IMG/VR virus record: IMGVR_UViG_3300014838_000019
Location: 11,837-75,836 of that record
Length of the DNA stretch: 64,000 bases
Direction: 5' to 3' (one strand)
From: a virus
Part shown: in pieces, positions 1 through 4,139 of the stretch
Layout: each line of letters starts with the position of its first letter
Numbering within the stretch: the stretch's first letter is position 1
Program-made: the position numbers and the translations under genes
Notes under the pieces: model-generated
What the model was told of the DNA's origin: nothing
What the model saw: only the letters and a program-made list of their open reading frames with translations
Database searches by the model: none

Positions 1-1
1 G

Positions 2-136
2 TTTTTACGAGGGTTCAAGCCCGGACTCAAGGTCACGGCGTTCTATTGCGACCCGATATATCGCCACGTCAGTTCGAGTGCTCTGCGGGGCATTCAGAAG
101 TTTTCCGAACAGGAATACAGAAAATACGTGGTCTGA
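2..136 (+). CDS. 3' end of phosphopantetheine adenylyltransferase-like (HIGH-superfamily) protein, partial
   Basis: Frame 2 reads FLRGFKPGLKVTAFYCDPIYRHVSSSALRGIQKFSEQEYRKYVV*; HVSSSALR resembles the CoaD C-terminal ISSS motif. Confidence 0.6.
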   Translation, partial: FLRGFKPGLKVTAFYCDPIYRHVSSSALRGIQKFSEQEYRKYVV

Positions 137-156
137 AATATAAATAATCATGGGAC

Positions 157-188
157 TTGACATTTTCGACTTCCCGTGCTATATTTAT
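157..188 (+). promoter_or_regulatory. sigma70-type promoter overlapping the TATTTAT motif
   Basis: TTGACA-17 nt-TATATT with extended TG, continuing as TATTTAT. Confidence 0.75.
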
Positions 189-199
189 GCGTAAGATTT

Positions 200-328
200 G
201 AGATGCACACAGCGACAAAAAATCTATGAGCCGAAAGACTCACCATGAGTCATCCTCTCCCTCGCAAAAAAGAGAGGCGGAAGAATAACCGTGCTGTTTT
301 TATAGTGCAGCGTAAAATTGGGCATCTC
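200..328 (+). ncRNA. putative structured ncRNA of unknown family
   Basis: Closing stem GAGATGC/GCATCTC with internal helices (CCTCTC/GAGAGG, ACAGC/GCTGT); lies just downstream of a promoter in the tRNA array. Confidence 0.5.
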
Positions 329-392
329 GCAAAATTTCCTATTCACCAATGGTGGAAAAGGTTGGGATAGACGTTCAGCGTCATCCTTTTAT

Positions 393-468
393 GGGGCATT
401 AGCTCAGTCAGTAGAGCGTCTGCTTTGCAAGCAGAAGGTGCCGGGAGCAAAGCCCGGATGCTCCACCA
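393..468 (+). tRNA. tRNA-Ala(TGC)
   Basis: Acceptor GGGGCAT/ATGCTCC with G3:U70, anticodon arm TCTGC-TTTGCAA-GCAGA, encoded CCA; atypical T-loop AGCAAAG. Confidence 0.92.
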
Positions 469-515
469 ATCTAAATATTTCGATTCGTTTCCGTTTCTCT
501 CCACTATTTATTGGT

Positions 516-1307
516 ATGAAGATGATACCAATCACTTGCCACAAATGTTCTAATATTGTTGACCGGCCAAAATCCGAGGTTGACCGACAAATTAGAAATG
601 GGCGGAAATATTTTTTCTGCTCATTGTCTTGCTCCACATCGGCAACAAAAACCACAACTCGCAATATAAAATCACGATGTCTATTTTGTCATAAAGAGTT
701 TGATTCGACTACTCGTAAAAAAGCAAAAGTATGTTGTAGCAAAGAGTGTGCAATAAAATATTCTCAATCATTTGTGGACCCGGTAATTCACAAAAAATCT
801 ATTCAGCGGCCATCACATTATCCCCGAGTCGAGAATTTCGAGTGCGTTATATGTGGAACGACGTTTAATAAGAATATAAAATCTCACGTCGAAACATATC
901 AGACCTGTTCGGATAAATGTTTTAGAACACTACTCCAAGTAAAGGCAAGAGCCAATCCAAATTGCGGCGGGGATACGAATTATCGAAGGTATAAATATAA
1001 TGGGATATGGATGGACTCAAAATGGGAAATAGAATTAGCCAAATGGATGGATGCCAATAGTATATCGTGGGAGAGGGACAATAAGAAACATCAATTCATA
1101 TGGACGGATAAAGACGGAAATAAGCGGCGATATTATCCCGACTTTTACCTTCCATCTTATAATGTGTATTTAGACCCGAAGAACAAATATCTCATTAAAG
1201 TTGATGATTACAAAATAAATCAAGTCATTCGGGAAAATAAAATTTGTCTTGTTTGGGGTCTGTTAGAAAATGTGAAAAAAGAAGTTGACATTTTGCGGGG
1301 AGTCTGA
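516..1307 (+). CDS. putative homing endonuclease: Cys-rich zinc-finger repeats plus TnsA-like PD-(D/E)xK domain
   Basis: CxxC...FCSxxC repeats; DSKWE...YYPDFYLP...YLDPKN. Start moved to ATG 516 because the longer ORF overlaps tRNA-Ala. Confidence 0.7.
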   Translation: MKMIPITCHKCSNIVDRPKSEVDRQIRNGRKYFFCSLSCSTSATKTTTRNIKSRCLFCHKEFDSTTRKKAKVCCSKECAIKYSQSFVDPVIHKKSIQRPSHYPRVENFECVICGTTFNKNIKSHVETYQTCSDKCFRTLLQVKARANPNCGGDTNYRRYKYNGIWMDSKWEIELAKWMDANSISWERDNKKHQFIWTDKDGNKRRYYPDFYLPSYNVYLDPKNKYLIKVDDYKINQVIRENKICLVWGLLENVKKEVDILRGV

Positions 1308-1316
1308 TATATTTAT
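1285..1316 (+). promoter_or_regulatory. sigma70-type promoter overlapping the TATTTAT motif
   Basis: TTGACA-17-TATATT, TG extension, then TAT. Confidence 0.75.
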
Positions 1317-1323
1317 GACCATA

Positions 1324-1538
1324 GCTCATCTACCAAGTAAGTGTAGAAGGAGTAACGGGTCCGTCAAGTGGCGAACCCATCAATTTGCCTATCGCCCATG
1401 TGGTGAAAAGGTATCTGAAGTCACTGCGAAGTGACCTCTGACAACTGCGGGAGTCGGCAGACAATAAAATAAGACGGAACTCCAATACCTTATGGTATTG
1501 CGAATCAAACCGAGGGGCACGGTCTCTCGGTCAGTTTA
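1324..1538 (+). ncRNA. putative structured ncRNA(s) of unknown family
   Basis: No ORF; dense hairpins such as GTCACT-GCGA-AGTGAC, CAATACC-TTAT-GGTATTG and ACCGAGGG/TCTCTCGGT between the promoter and tRNA-Met. Confidence 0.45.
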
Positions 1539-1539
1539 T

Positions 1540-1617
1540 TGCGGGCTAGGCAGTTCTGGTGAACTCCTTTGTCTCATAAGCAAATCTAGAAAAGTTCAAT
1601 TCTTTTGCCCGCTACCA
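1540..1617 (+). tRNA. tRNA-Met(CAT), 1:72 mismatch
   Basis: Acceptor TGCGGGC/GCCCGCT, anticodon loop CTCATAA, T arm AAAAG-TTCAATT-CTTTT, CCA. Confidence 0.85.
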
Positions 1618-1681
1618 ATTTTGCTCTTGTAAATGTCCCGATCCAAAGTCATAGACTTGAGAAGAAGGTATTGAGCATTAT

Positions 1682-1755
1682 GGGGTCGTCGTTCAACGGT
1701 AGGACTTGACTATGGCATAGTTAGGATAGGGGTTCGATTCCCCTCGGCTCCACCA
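1682..1755 (+). tRNA. tRNA-Ala(GGC)
   Basis: GGGGTCG/CGGCTCC with G3:U70; loop ATGGCAT (A32-U38 as in bacterial Ala-GGC); GGTTCGATTCC; CCA. Confidence 0.92.
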
Positions 1756-1802
1756 AGTATTTGACTGGAATAGTTTCAGTCATTAGAGAAATAAAACATA
1801 AC

Positions 1803-2366
1803 ATGAAGAAAACATTATCATTATTTGCAACCCTCATCCTTGCGGTAGGTCTATTCGCAGGATGTGCATCTCCAAACGGAGCATCATCCCTCACCCCCGC
1901 TCAAGTAGCAACCGTTGGTGTGGTTGTAACTCAAGCCGCCAATGTTGGTGCTGCATATGCAATTCAGCAAGACAAAACGAACGCCAAGTATTTTGTTCTT
2001 GCCGATGCCGCCATTGACACCTTGGTTGTAAGCAGCAATGCAAGTCCAACCGAACTTGAAAATGCTCTTGCTCCAATCGAAGGAAGCAATCAATTGGTTA
2101 ATGTTGCCATCAGCGGAGCACTCGTCGCTTATGACCTCACATTGAGCCAATATTCAATCACGAATGCCGCTGACGCCGATGCCATTATATGGCTTGGTGA
2201 TATAGAAGTCGGATTCAAGGAAGCATTGGTCTCGACTGGTGCAACAGGATTGACAGTCGCCCACATTGATCCTCCTTATTACTTGCAGCACGTTGGAACA
2301 GGTATCGTAGTTAATACGAATGCTATCAAGTTTACAATCGAAGAAGCCAAGCCAGTGACAAAGTAA
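1803..2366 (+). CDS. lipoprotein
   Basis: Signal peptide MKKTLSLFATLILAVGLFAG-C with lipobox. Confidence 0.75.
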   Translation: MKKTLSLFATLILAVGLFAGCASPNGASSLTPAQVATVGVVVTQAANVGAAYAIQQDKTNAKYFVLADAAIDTLVVSSNASPTELENALAPIEGSNQLVNVAISGALVAYDLTLSQYSITNAADADAIIWLGDIEVGFKEALVSTGATGLTVAHIDPPYYLQHVGTGIVVNTNAIKFTIEEAKPVTK

Positions 2367-2382
2367 ATTAACTTTAACGCAT

Positions 2383-2414
2383 ATCCCTCGCTTCGGCGAG
2401 GGATTTTTTTTTTT
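2383..2414 (+). terminator. rho-independent terminator
   Basis: ATCCCTCGC-TTCG-GCGAGGGAT followed by a T run. Confidence 0.9.
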
Positions 2415-2425
2415 GTAGAAAGTGT

Positions 2426-2457
2426 TTGACATTTGGAAAAGGTGTGGTATATTTATA
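2426..2457 (+). promoter_or_regulatory. sigma70-type promoter overlapping the TATTTAT motif
   Basis: TTGACA-16-TATATT(TATA) with TG extension, just before tRNA-Gln. Confidence 0.7.
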
Positions 2458-2466
2458 TCTGACGAT

Positions 2467-2540
2467 TGGAGTTTAGTGTAGTGGTAGCACGACTCTCTCT
2501 GAAAGAGCAAGTGAAAGTTCGATTCTTTCAACTCCAGCCA
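2467..2540 (+). tRNA. tRNA-Gln(CTG)
   Basis: TGGAGTT/AACTCCA acceptor, loop CTCTGAA, GAAAG-TTCGATT-CTTTC T arm, CCA. Confidence 0.9.
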
Positions 2541-2550
2541 ATTTTAGTTT

Positions 2551-2738
2551 TTGATGTAGCAGACATACCAAAATTCTATGTGCCCGTCATGTGGACATAT
2601 GGGACGAACGTCAGCAACAAGTAGGTTCTTAAGTTTGAACCGAAGATGACGATGGGAGGTCACAACCCAAAGAGTGACTTTGCGAAGACTGCGAGTAAGG
2701 TCTAGGTCAACTACGAACTGTCGTAAGGGCTACATCAA
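2551..2738 (+). ncRNA. putative 188-nt multi-branched ncRNA
   Basis: Perfect 10-bp closing stem TTGATGTAGC/GCTACATCAA filling the gap between two tRNAs, with several internal hairpins. Confidence 0.6.
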
Positions 2739-2743
2739 TTTTA

Positions 2744-2831
2744 GGCGAATTGCCGGAACGGTAACGGGCCAGCTTGGAAAGCTGAGGCAAGTTAACTACT
2801 TGAGTGGGTTCGACTCCTACATTCGCCGCCA
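2744..2831 (+). tRNA. tRNA-Ser(GGA)
   Basis: GGCGAAT/ATTCGCC, loop TTGGAAA, long variable arm, G73, CCA. Confidence 0.92.
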
Positions 2832-2837
2832 ATTTTA

Positions 2838-2927
2838 AATGCGACTGCAACTAGCGATGAAGGTTCGATTCCTTAGTAAAGTGGAACGCAAGTCAGGGGC
2901 ATAATCTGATAGGGTTATGTCAGCATT
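2838..2927 (+). ncRNA. tRNA-like (T-arm-containing) ncRNA
   Basis: Closing stem AATGC-GAC/GTC-A-GCATT; internal AAGG-TTCGATT-CCTT followed by a D-loop-like AGTGGA. Confidence 0.5.
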
Positions 2928-2951
2928 ACGATTATGGATATACAGTATCGA

Positions 2952-3042
2952 GGTGAGTTGGTAGAGATGGATTATTGCACCTGACTCGAAATCAGGAGTG
3001 GCCTCAAAACCACCGGGGGTTCGAATCCCTCACTTACCGCCA
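2952..3042 (+). tRNA. tRNA-Ser(CGA)
   Basis: GGTGAGT/ACTTACC, CCTGA-CTCGAAA-TCAGG, long variable arm, G73, CCA. Confidence 0.93.
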
Positions 3043-3050
3043 TTTTGTAG

Positions 3051-3079
3051 TTGACATCAATTGAGTAAAGTGTTAAACT
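3051..3079 (+). promoter_or_regulatory. sigma70-type promoter
   Basis: TTGACA-17-TAAACT with TG extension. Confidence 0.65.
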
Positions 3080-3110
3080 ATCTTTGAAATTGAAATTCTA
3101 AAATACAGTT

Positions 3111-3377
3111 ATGACATTACCAATATGGTTCCTCGTTCTTAGTCTTTTCCTCCCTCGCATTGCACTCTTAGCTGCATTTATTGCGGGTGGATCATTCCCA
3201 CATCTGTTCACCAAATGGCTTTCTGTGCCAATGGCTGCACTTATTCCCCGAGTTCTTGTTCTTATTGCTATAGCCACTACAATGGGGATATGCGTATGGT
3301 TTTGGATTCATTTAGGATTCATGATTGTAGTTTGGTTCATATCCATACTTCGTAGTTCTGTCAGTCGTGGAAAGTAA
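3111..3377 (+). CDS. small integral membrane protein
   Basis: 88 aa, almost entirely hydrophobic, internal repeat LPRIALL/IPRVLVL. Confidence 0.7.
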   Translation: MTLPIWFLVLSLFLPRIALLAAFIAGGSFPHLFTKWLSVPMAALIPRVLVLIAIATTMGICVWFWIHLGFMIVVWFISILRSSVSRGK

Positions 3378-3381
3378 TTCT

Positions 3382-3678
3382 ATGCAAGAACCAACGTCTA
3401 TCATGGTCAAGTGTGAATGCCACGATGAAGCACTTGAAGTGACCCATTGGCCAGATACAAATGGCAATGGAGAAAGTGAAAATGAGTATTGGTTTGCAAT
3501 ATGGAAACAAGGATTTGATACTCGTCTCTGTTGGAGAGAACGTTTCCGTTGGTGTTGGAATATTTTAAGGACGGGCAAGCCGTGGGGTGACAATATAATT
3601 TTAACTCCCGAGAACGCTAAACAAGTTTCTGAGTTCATTAATCAAAATTTAAAAAATGATACCGAGACCAAAAAATAG
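3382..3678 (+). CDS. hypothetical protein
   Basis: ORF tightly packed in the operon; CECH motif. Confidence 0.6.
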   Translation: MQEPTSIMVKCECHDEALEVTHWPDTNGNGESENEYWFAIWKQGFDTRLCWRERFRWCWNILRTGKPWGDNIILTPENAKQVSEFINQNLKNDTETKK

Positions 3679-3910
3679 TGTGGCACCGTCAAGCCATCAA
3701 ACGGATATAGCCAGTAACCACGAGGCAACCCCCATCAAGTATGTAGTTGTCCGCAATGGGCATCGAGTATCTGATAAAGATTACGATGCTCCCAATAATC
3801 CTCGGTGTTTGGATGAAATAAATTTCTGGACAAGAGTTTCCAATAACACTTCGTTTGGGGAAAAGGTTGAGGTGGTCCCCTATGATTCAAAAAGGCATCG
3901 AGTTTGGTAA
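3656..3910 (+). CDS. hypothetical protein
   Basis: ORF followed by a terminator. Confidence 0.55.
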   Translation: MIPRPKNSVAPSSHQTDIASNHEATPIKYVVVRNGHRVSDKDYDAPNNPRCLDEINFWTRVSNNTSFGEKVEVVPYDSKRHRVW

Positions 3911-3928
3911 CTATATCTATTTCTACAG

Positions 3929-3956
3929 GAGCACGTATTTACGTGCTCTTTTTTTT
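3929..3956 (+). terminator. rho-independent terminator
   Basis: GAGCACGTA/TACGTGCTC stem followed by a T run. Confidence 0.8.
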
Positions 3957-3995
3957 GGTTCTTTTATTTCTTTTGTCCACAAGTATCTCATATTT

Positions 3996-4139
3996 ATGAG
4001 TATGCGGAAATTGACGTTAGATGAATTCATTCTGAAAGCAAAGCACGCTCATGGTGGAAAATATGATTATTCGAAATTTGTGCGAATAACACATAAAGAT
4101 TTCTCAAATATATATTCGGGTTTATCTTCTATGTTATGA
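3996..4139 (+). pseudogene. truncated homing-endonuclease N-terminus (KYDYS repeat)
   Basis: MRKLTLDEFILKAKHAHGGKYDYSKFV is the typical 'EFIxKAxxxHGxKYDYSK' DNA-binding repeat; no nuclease domain follows. Confidence 0.6.

Follow-up and report, generated by a model that had tools for sequence, protein, structure and literature searches.

A conserved five-armed RNA between tRNA genes of large uncultured phages, probably present as a circle

Genomic context of the element

The DNA analysed here (the window, 64,000 nucleotides) comprises bases 11837-75836 of a 75.8-kb IMG/VR virus record whose completeness was estimated at 21% by CheckV, so that only part of a very large phage is represented. Fifteen tRNA genes were located by ARAGORN in the record, 6 of those within the window. 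The unit of interest runs from promoter to promoter in the order terminator, promoter, tRNA-Gln(ctg), element, tRNA-Ser(gga), a 120-nt spacer, tRNA-Ser(cga) and next promoter, and its features are listed in Table 1. An earlier note on this DNA had described a 188-nt RNA precisely filling the slot between two tRNAs, and this placement agrees with the ARAGORN positions of tRNA-Gln(ctg) and tRNA-Ser(gga). The AATTTT spacers that it had seen on either side of the element are found as parts of an 8-nt direct repeat, AATTTTAG, at 2540-2547 and 2737-2744, which brackets the element. Its second copy extends over the end of stem P1 and the +1 position of tRNA-Ser, and the 3′ end of the element (CAA-UUUUA-G) therefore mimics the CCA-AUUUUA spacer that follows the tRNAs.

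Table 1. Features of the tRNA unit and of the element, in positions of the window
Feature	Position	Strand	Remarks
Terminator	2383-2404		precedes unit promoter
Sigma-70-type promoter, TTGACA, 16 nt, TATATT, TG before -10	2426-2453	+	consensus match 11/12; predicted
tRNA-Gln(CUG), CCA encoded	2467-2540	+	ARAGORN; Rfam tRNA 63.1 bits
5′ spacer AUUUUAG, excluded from the cycle	2541-2547	+	back-joint starts at 2548 in three runs
Closed-cycle RNA	2548-2742	+	2548-2741 (194 nt) in two runs, 2548-2742 (195 nt) in the third
P1, 5′ strand	2551-2560	+	pairs with 2729-2738; 9/9 modelled pairs covary, 92% paired
P1b, ACC	2567-2569	+	pairs with GGU 2705-2707; 81% paired; double changes in 3/3 pairs; weakest helix
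P2 hairpin	2583-2603	+	96.5% paired; double changes in 8/9 pairs; recovered on MAFFT-only alignment too
P3 arm	2609-2651	+	P3a 96.9% paired, P3b 97.5%; 10/10 pairs covary
P4 hairpin, GGUCAC/GUGACU	2658-2679	+	86.6% paired; double changes in 6/6 pairs
P5 hairpin	2686-2703	+	2686-2690 / 2699-2703; 94.3% paired; double changes in 5/5 pairs
P6 hairpin, TACGA/TCGTA	2712-2725	+	subgroup-specific; one compensatory change in L113, weaker in L125
P1, 3′ strand	2729-2738	+	pairs with 2551-2560
tRNA-Ser(GGA)	2744-2831	+	ARAGORN
tRNA-Ser(cga)	2952-3042		
Next promoter	3051-3079		

The unit promoter was called by consensus scan alone, and judged from its sequence it would drive tRNA-Gln, the element, tRNA-Ser, the spacer RNA and the second tRNA-Ser as one transcript. 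Near-identical strong promoters (TTGACA, 16-17 nt, TG-n-TATATT) head RNA gene blocks at 157-185, 1285-1313 and 2426-2453, and the same promoter box stands immediately before the element in several relatives (L034, L043, L066). Long GC-richer leaders without ORFs are seen at 1324-1538 and 186-392, between promoters and tRNA-Met or tRNA-Ala, and these may hold further structured RNAs. Upstream of the unit, RNA contigs of the ORF at 1761-2366 end at 2351-2368, and in two runs the sequencing adapter was found directly at 2356-2358, a position not beyond the stop codon and ahead of the predicted terminator hairpin.

Fold of the element and covariation

The fold of the element consists of P1 and the short P1b, which together enclose the four arms P2 to P5. 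The terminal stem P1 is formed by TTGATGTAGC and GCTACATCAA with 10/10 Watson-Crick pairs, exactly as first noticed. P1 has no conserved sequence, its arms being wholly different among relatives and yet complementary over 7-15 bp. The P2 hairpin is composed of a lower stem (2583-2587 / 2599-2603), a bulged C2588 and a nearly invariant upper stem (2589-2592 / 2595-2598; family consensus GUAU/AUAC). In the P3 arm, P3a (2609-2613 / 2647-2651) and P3b (2624-2628 / 2637-2641, apical loop UUAAGUUU) are separated by an internal loop in which an invariant AGUA (2620-2623) faces GAA (2642-2644), by its sequence pattern a candidate loop-E/bulged-G-type motif. P4 (2658-2663 / 2674-2679) carries the conserved loop ACAAYC-NAAA-G with the loop end C-NNAA-G, and one further loop-closing pair covaries. 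The family loop consensus of P5 is GAC-R-AGA. P6 (2712-2716 / 2721-2725) is absent from shorter relatives, and the extra sequence between P1b and P1 that folds as P6 in the window marks a longer subgroup made up of the window and L113, L125, L002, L004 and L005. The conserved joiners are A-AAU, UAGG and UUUG, and altogether about 25 unpaired positions are invariant or nearly invariant across divergent phages. Ranking of column pairs by mutual information gave no convincing long-range tertiary pairs beyond one-pair extensions of P4 and P5. A reading of the UUAAGUU loop as anticodon- or codon-like was ruled out, the triplet varying among the family.

Four of the five helices named in the earlier note, the terminal stem included, are correct, with GGTTC/GAACC, GGTCAC/GTGACT and TACGA/TCGTA present as P3b, P4 and P6. 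For the fifth, GTCAT/ATGAC, the 3′ strand was right and the partner wrong: by covariation TGACG (2647-2651) pairs with CGTCA (2609-2613), and GTCAT at 2586-2590 is part of the P2 hairpin, which was overlooked then, as was P5. The branched shape proposed there is borne out by the multi-arm fold in the alignment of 32 homologues.

Folded as a single sequence, the element has a minimum free energy of -55.2 kcal/mol with z = -2.5 (+ strand) and -1.4 (- strand) relative to shuffles, which is modestly better than shuffles and alone would prove little. On a plain MAFFT alignment, RNAalifold recovered P2, P3a, P3b and P5, with compensatory changes in 22 of the 24 predicted pairs. In the alignment of the 32 distinct homologues fitted to the covariance model, which is biased to its own structure, 92.6% of 1359 cells form standard pairs, relative to 33-38% in slid controls with partners shifted by 1-3 columns, and changes on both sides are found in 43/44 pairs. 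None of 500 shuffles matched the observed value on any of five measures. A structure-blind check was provided by ranking all column pairs by mutual information, where the top 16 were all proposed base pairs (16/16). Five helices are maintained by compensatory change. G-U pairs are frequent in P3a, P4 and P5 and are C-A mismatches on the other strand, which identifies + as the RNA strand. The homologue search and covariation check that had been suggested for this element thereby gave existing homologues and strong covariation, and we are virtually certain that the window at 2551-2738 (+) holds the gene for a compact five-armed structured ncRNA that is real, conserved and previously uncatalogued.

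Distribution of the family

Among catalogued phages (50,697 phage records, blastn with word size 11) no similarity was found beyond the tRNA-Ser part of the query, and the upstream 201-aa ORF as query gave no relatives. The PhoH gene 1.7 kb downstream of the element led to 69 loci from uncultured viral contigs. These were searched by nhmmer and thereafter with a covariance model built from 12 of the PhoH-recovered sequences. The element was present in 37 of the 78 sources searched with nhmmer or the covariance model, always on the PhoH/tRNA strand and in one copy per locus, and pattern scans supplied further members from viral and metagenome contigs. The family now comprises at least 32 distinct sequences, all on the tRNA strand in large uncultured phages, and the element is encoded in phage DNA at more than 40 loci. 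Three relatives, one of 365 kb and complete (100%) and two of 250-280 kb, have exactly one copy each. A group-A pattern scan returned mostly coding-sequence coincidences, the real matches being only L113 and L125.

The tRNA context is well preserved. By ARAGORN, the nearest upstream tRNA is tRNA-Gln(ctg) in 24/32 and the nearest downstream tRNA is tRNA-Ser(gga) in 23/32. P1 starts 3-16 nt after the CCA of tRNA-Gln in 17 of these 24, and it ends 1-7 nt before the +1 of tRNA-Ser in 21 of these 23, the remaining two distances being due to mis-assigned stems. A terminator and a promoter are inserted ahead of the element in L034, L043, L044, L066 and L029, where the element starts its own transcript, and in L031 the element has its own terminator. 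In L018 and L064 there is no element and the two tRNAs are joined with gaps of 4-6 nt. Own promoters or terminator in some relatives, together with absence in others, make the element a discrete and optional gene.

At several loci (L003 5829-5900, L012, L046, L044, L004), sequences starting GGAAGGTTAAGTG were found just 3′ of the element, occupying the usual place of tRNA-Ser(gga) and giving no ARAGORN tRNA call. They may be atypical tRNA-like genes.

A strict core pattern had 0 matches in 185,579 bacterial and archaeal species (one genome each) versus 17 in viral contigs, and a cellular origin was rejected, as none of the 57 matches obtained with a looser pattern passed the covariance model. 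As far as searched, the family is restricted to large uncultured phages. No close cultured relative was found, the best PhoH matches being below 40% identity, and Tunturiibacter phage Tunturi_5 is without the element.

Comparison with known RNA classes

No Rfam 15 family matched 2551-2738 in any overlapping position, either at gathering scores or at E<=10, the latter scan being run with permissive filters over window positions 1-4000. The families without a match include RNase P, SRP, tmRNA, 6S, Y RNA/YrlA, GOLLD, ROOL, riboswitches, self-cleaving ribozymes and group I/II introns. ARAGORN gave no tRNA or tmRNA in 2541-2743, and none at default settings on the doubled 194-nt circle described below. 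The lack of RNase P, SRP and tmRNA signatures reported before is in agreement with these searches. A permuted tRNA or tmRNA was rejected, since only a spurious opposite-strand call with an intron appeared at a relaxed ARAGORN threshold. In the literature searched, including a large metatranscriptome circular-RNA survey and two recent preprints on new bacterial RNAs, no such RNA is described, and no description was found of a circular RNA of this kind for a DNA phage. The suggestion that this phage tRNA array contains an ncRNA of an undescribed class is supported by this Rfam null, by the covarying homologues and by stable RNA in three metatranscriptomes.

Several other candidates were rejected. 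A protein-coding role does not fit, with only short overlapping ORFs present and with indels and compensatory changes as in RNA, and rolling-circle translation is excluded because each of the six frames contains stops in both the 194- and the 195-nt circle and because the family lengths range over 148-193 nt. A riboswitch or cis-regulatory leader does not agree with a tRNA that follows within 1-7 nt and an RNA that accumulates as a separate molecule. A viroid-like replicating circle (viroids, satellites, Obelisks) is at odds with an RNA encoded by phage DNA, with a branched fold and no ribozyme family match. The notion of a specificity domain acting in trans for a cut-down phage RNase P was not supported, the topology being unlike the S-domain. 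No RNase P RNA was found in the record (Rfam RF00010; full Rfam scan at E<=10), and the CR-I motif occurs at chance level.

Cyclic contigs in metatranscriptomes

A 1-kb stretch was detected, in part or whole, in DNA runs from permafrost, peat and freshwater and in six metatranscriptome runs; run shares below 0.2 (X18-X20) were not counted as habitat evidence. RNA contigs, assembled contigs and not raw reads, were examined in four metatranscriptome runs. X10, X17 and X18, peat metatranscriptomes of three different studies, each yielded a single isolated cyclic contig for the element, with 100% identity to the window's own sequence. These contigs cover only 2548-2741 (2548-2742 in X17) and carry a same-strand joint from 2741/2742 to 2548. 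Their lengths of 224, 225 and 224 nt equal 194/195 + 30, where 30 is k-1 for k = 31, each contig begins and ends with the same 30 nt, and the contigs are opened at different interior points (2638, 2652 and 2640), as is expected of isolated cycles in a de Bruijn graph. No adapter or loose ends were reported at 2548 or 2741, adapters being present on the ends of neighbouring mRNA contigs in the same runs. The depth was 244, 214 and 52 in X10, X17 and X18 relative to 57, 24 and 10 for the upstream mRNA, that is 4-9 times the mRNA, and 0 for the tRNAs. The stable transcript anticipated in the earlier note is thus seen as RNA of the predicted extent in three metatranscriptomes, and it is very likely that the element RNA is excised and abundant.

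The cycle is made up of the stem-closed 188-nt element and, where the ends meet, a loop of U6-7, the joint sequence being CAA-U(8-9)-GAUG and the period 194 or 195. With a mainly linear RNA, the contig should have been broken at the RNA ends, and the sequence has no 30-nt direct repeat able to close the assembly graph; for these reasons the RNA is read as a circle, and we consider it likely that the element RNA is circular with a length of 194-195 nt. All DNA loci have a single copy of the element with tRNA flanks. A tandem duplication in the DNA is unlikely given one copy per locus, and from recombination between the AATTTTAG copies one would expect a 197-nt period and an AG at the joint, whereas no AG is seen there. 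It is argued from this that the joint is absent from the DNA template.

A second spacer RNA, 2833-2929, between tRNA-Ser(gga) and tRNA-Ser(cga), was also found as a cyclic contig in X9, of 127 nt = 97 + 30. A similar contig of 124 nt is present in X10. This second RNA combines a terminal stem AAUGC/GCAUU with short tails and a hairpin resembling a T arm (AAGG-UUCGAUU-CCUU). It recurs in conserved form in L166 and L191, and across the joint it shows a poor tRNA-like fold that is called by ARAGORN at a relaxed threshold only.

Proposed biogenesis

The element would be co-transcribed with the flanking tRNAs from the promoter at 2426-2453 and released by the nucleases of tRNA maturation. RNase E prefers sites of the form R-N|W-U-U, and in the E. 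coli model it separates CCA-encoding tRNAs a few nucleotides downstream. With RNase E assumed for the host, an RNase E-type cut at G2547|U2548 (A-G|U-U-U), 7 nt past the CCA of tRNA-Gln, would give U2548 a 5′ phosphate, and U-rich sites like A-G|U-U-U also precede P1 in relatives. Of the two products of RNase P, the upstream one ends in a 3′ hydroxyl, and exonucleases commonly trim such an end by a few nucleotides as far as a stem. Cleavage by RNase P at the +1 of tRNA-Ser followed by trimming of 1-2 nt would accordingly place a 3′ hydroxyl at U2741 or U2742. P1 would then keep both short U tails together, and these would be joined into the 194-195-nt circle.

A 5′ phosphate and a 3′ hydroxyl are the substrates of ATP-dependent RNA ligases and not of RtcB. 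With such ends, the likeliest sealing enzyme would be a phage ligase of the Rnl family, and we regard sealing by a phage Rnl-type ligase as a tentative proposal with somewhat less than an even chance of being right. RtcB is absent from five related phage records (G000-G004), and 2-3 PF09414 RNA ligase genes are present in each of three near-complete relatives. One of these ligases, with an OB domain at its N-terminus, is similar to Naegleria Rnl5 (E = 6e-34), and G002 also carries an Rnl1-type gene. In the 250-kb relative G003 (L029 1088-2170) an Rnl5-like gene (OB domain + PF09414) is inserted between tRNA-Gln(ctg) and the element, its product sharing 56% identity with the ligase found in the 365-kb relative. 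No locus other than L029 has a ligase next to the element, and there is no ligase gene in the window's own record, which is 21% complete. That the stem-closed second spacer 2833-2929 cycles too fits a ligase sealing any ends juxtaposed by a stem.

Function and alternative explanations

Being a circle, the RNA would have no ends open to exonuclease attack, and it accumulates above the neighbouring mRNA. A host or phage protein would probably bind to the surface made by its conserved loops, this being the least supported step of the scheme. That the circle serves as a stable protein-binding decoy or scaffold during infection is a speculative suggestion to which we give only a minor chance. As a whole, the reading of a phage-restricted ncRNA that is released by tRNA nucleases, sealed by an Rnl-type ligase and kept as a long-lived protein-binding circle is the one towards which we lean, with moderate confidence. 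In its widest form, which we put close to, and slightly short of, an even prospect, large phages would run a dedicated circular-RNA route in which structured inter-tRNA RNAs are excised by host nucleases and sealed by phage ligases into exonuclease-proof effectors, the five-armed RNA being the founding member and the 97-nt RNA a second product.

The most serious alternative, which we nevertheless hold to be unlikely, is a stable linear small RNA cut from the tRNA transcript, comparable to the stable non-tRNA RNAs of the T4 tRNA cluster, the back-joint arising from assembly or from template switching by reverse transcriptase at the ends juxtaposed by P1. P1 sets the 5′ and 3′ tails side by side, so that reverse transcriptase could jump between the ends held by it, the joint lies within a U run where the one-U difference between runs could be slippage, and the evidence for the circle consists of contigs. 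Against a linear RNA speaks that the same clean cycle was obtained in three studies, each time opened at an interior point, that neither branch nor adapter was found at 2548 or 2741 although adapters do occur on neighbouring mRNA contigs, and that, were a linear form dominant, the contig should end where the RNA does, there being no 30-nt direct repeat to join them. The circle could also be an intermediate that is re-opened elsewhere, like circularly permuted tRNA genes, so that the true ends are internal and no family match is obtained. The circularity in the assemblies and the neighbouring 97-nt cycle with its T-arm-like hairpin agree with such a course, which is still highly improbable in view of the silence of ARAGORN on the doubled circle at default settings and the lack of a partial match to Rfam local models. 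Furthermore, P1 covaries as a closed stem, the loop at the joint consists of unconserved U's, and in three runs the assembled cycle has no internal break.

Two further explanations concern what the RNA is for and how it is made. It might be a functionless structured spacer that insulates the flanking tRNAs or aids their processing and is circularised accidentally by a repair ligase. The tight packing, with a distance of 3-16 nt to the preceding CCA and of 1-7 nt to the following tRNA's +1, is what a spacer would show, and the cycling of an unrelated second spacer suggests that a ligase acts on any stem-closed fragment. A mere spacer is however hardly expected to keep about 25 unpaired positions invariant or nearly so and five helices under compensatory change, nor to be more abundant as RNA than the neighbouring mRNA; moreover, L018 and L064 join the tRNAs directly (4-6 nt) and other phages give the element its own promoter or terminator, and we find this explanation very unlikely, to a degree only marginally less than for the re-opened intermediate. 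Least probable of all is a self-processing ribozyme that cuts itself out, ligates its own ends, or both. A multi-helix junction with invariant unpaired nucleotides and a circular product would suit a ribozyme, and a loop-E-like motif is also part of the hairpin ribozyme. Self-cleaving ribozyme families gave no match, though, and the joint is placed beyond P1 in U tails that are not conserved, some 10 bp distant from every conserved nucleotide, with ends that match the expected sites of tRNA-processing enzymes.

Significance and relation to known systems

The element represents a conserved structured RNA family without catalogued relative, with covariation support equal to that of established RNA classes, and it is carried by poorly known 250-365-kb phages of peat, permafrost and freshwater. 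If the circle is true, circular ncRNAs extend to DNA phages, with an origin in tRNA punctuation and RNA ligation. If the dedicated route is true as well, this would be the first circular ncRNA class encoded by a DNA phage and a natural counterpart of engineered stem-plus-ligase expression systems. Phage RNA ligases are usually regarded only as tRNA-repair enzymes, and they would then gain a second role. A stem, short U tails and tRNA flanks make a simple design and a possible route to circular RNAs in bacteria. In the search for a binding partner one would naturally begin with the conserved loops, the invariant AGUA/GAA loop among them.

The tRNA gene cluster of phage T4 encodes stable non-tRNA small RNAs, species 1 and 2 (rnaC/rnaD), whose function is unknown. 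The element resembles these in its position inside a phage tRNA cluster, in co-transcription with tRNAs, in release by the tRNA machinery, which for the element is a proposal, and in stability, being flanked by tRNAs and represented by discrete RNA contigs that cover only 2548-2741(2) at high depth. It differs in having no sequence similarity to them (50,697 phage records) and a different multi-arm junction, and to our knowledge species 1 and 2 have not been reported as circular. GOLLD and ROOL, with which the element had been compared at the outset, are likewise found in tRNA-rich regions of phages and prophages and have a complex conserved fold and unknown function. The comparison holds for location and fails for homology, as there is no Rfam match and the element, with its 155-195 nt as opposed to more than 500 nt, is a third of their size.

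Among circular RNAs, archaeal C/D box sRNAs are circularised by the ATP-dependent ligase Rnl (PMC9014305, PMC3326292). The likeness lies in a small, structured, DNA-encoded RNA that forms an abundant circle, and in a ligase of the PF09414 superfamily, the circle being probable and the ligase putative for the phage RNA. The differences are a bacterial virus, an unrelated RNA and ends that are proposed to come from tRNA-processing nucleases. The tRNA intronic circular RNAs, tricRNAs (PMC4536317), and the archaeal bulge-helix-bulge intron circles are products of tRNA maturation in which a stem brings the ends together, as is proposed for the element. They are, however, introns that the splicing endonuclease excises and RtcB joins (2′,3′-cyclic phosphate + 5′-OH), whereas the element is a spacer between tRNAs, with no bulge-helix-bulge apparent and with RtcB absent from the related phage genomes. 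DucS of Bacillus altitudinis is a bacterial sRNA with linear and circular forms (PMC10504365) and shares with the element that it is a non-intron ncRNA of the bacterial world and, in the probable reading of the element, that it exists as a circle; unlike the element it is chromosomal, unrelated in sequence and context, and has no tie to tRNA processing. In kind, the phage RNA is thus partly familiar from the stable RNAs of phage tRNA clusters and from the ligase-made circles of archaea, while its fold and the combination of these properties are new.
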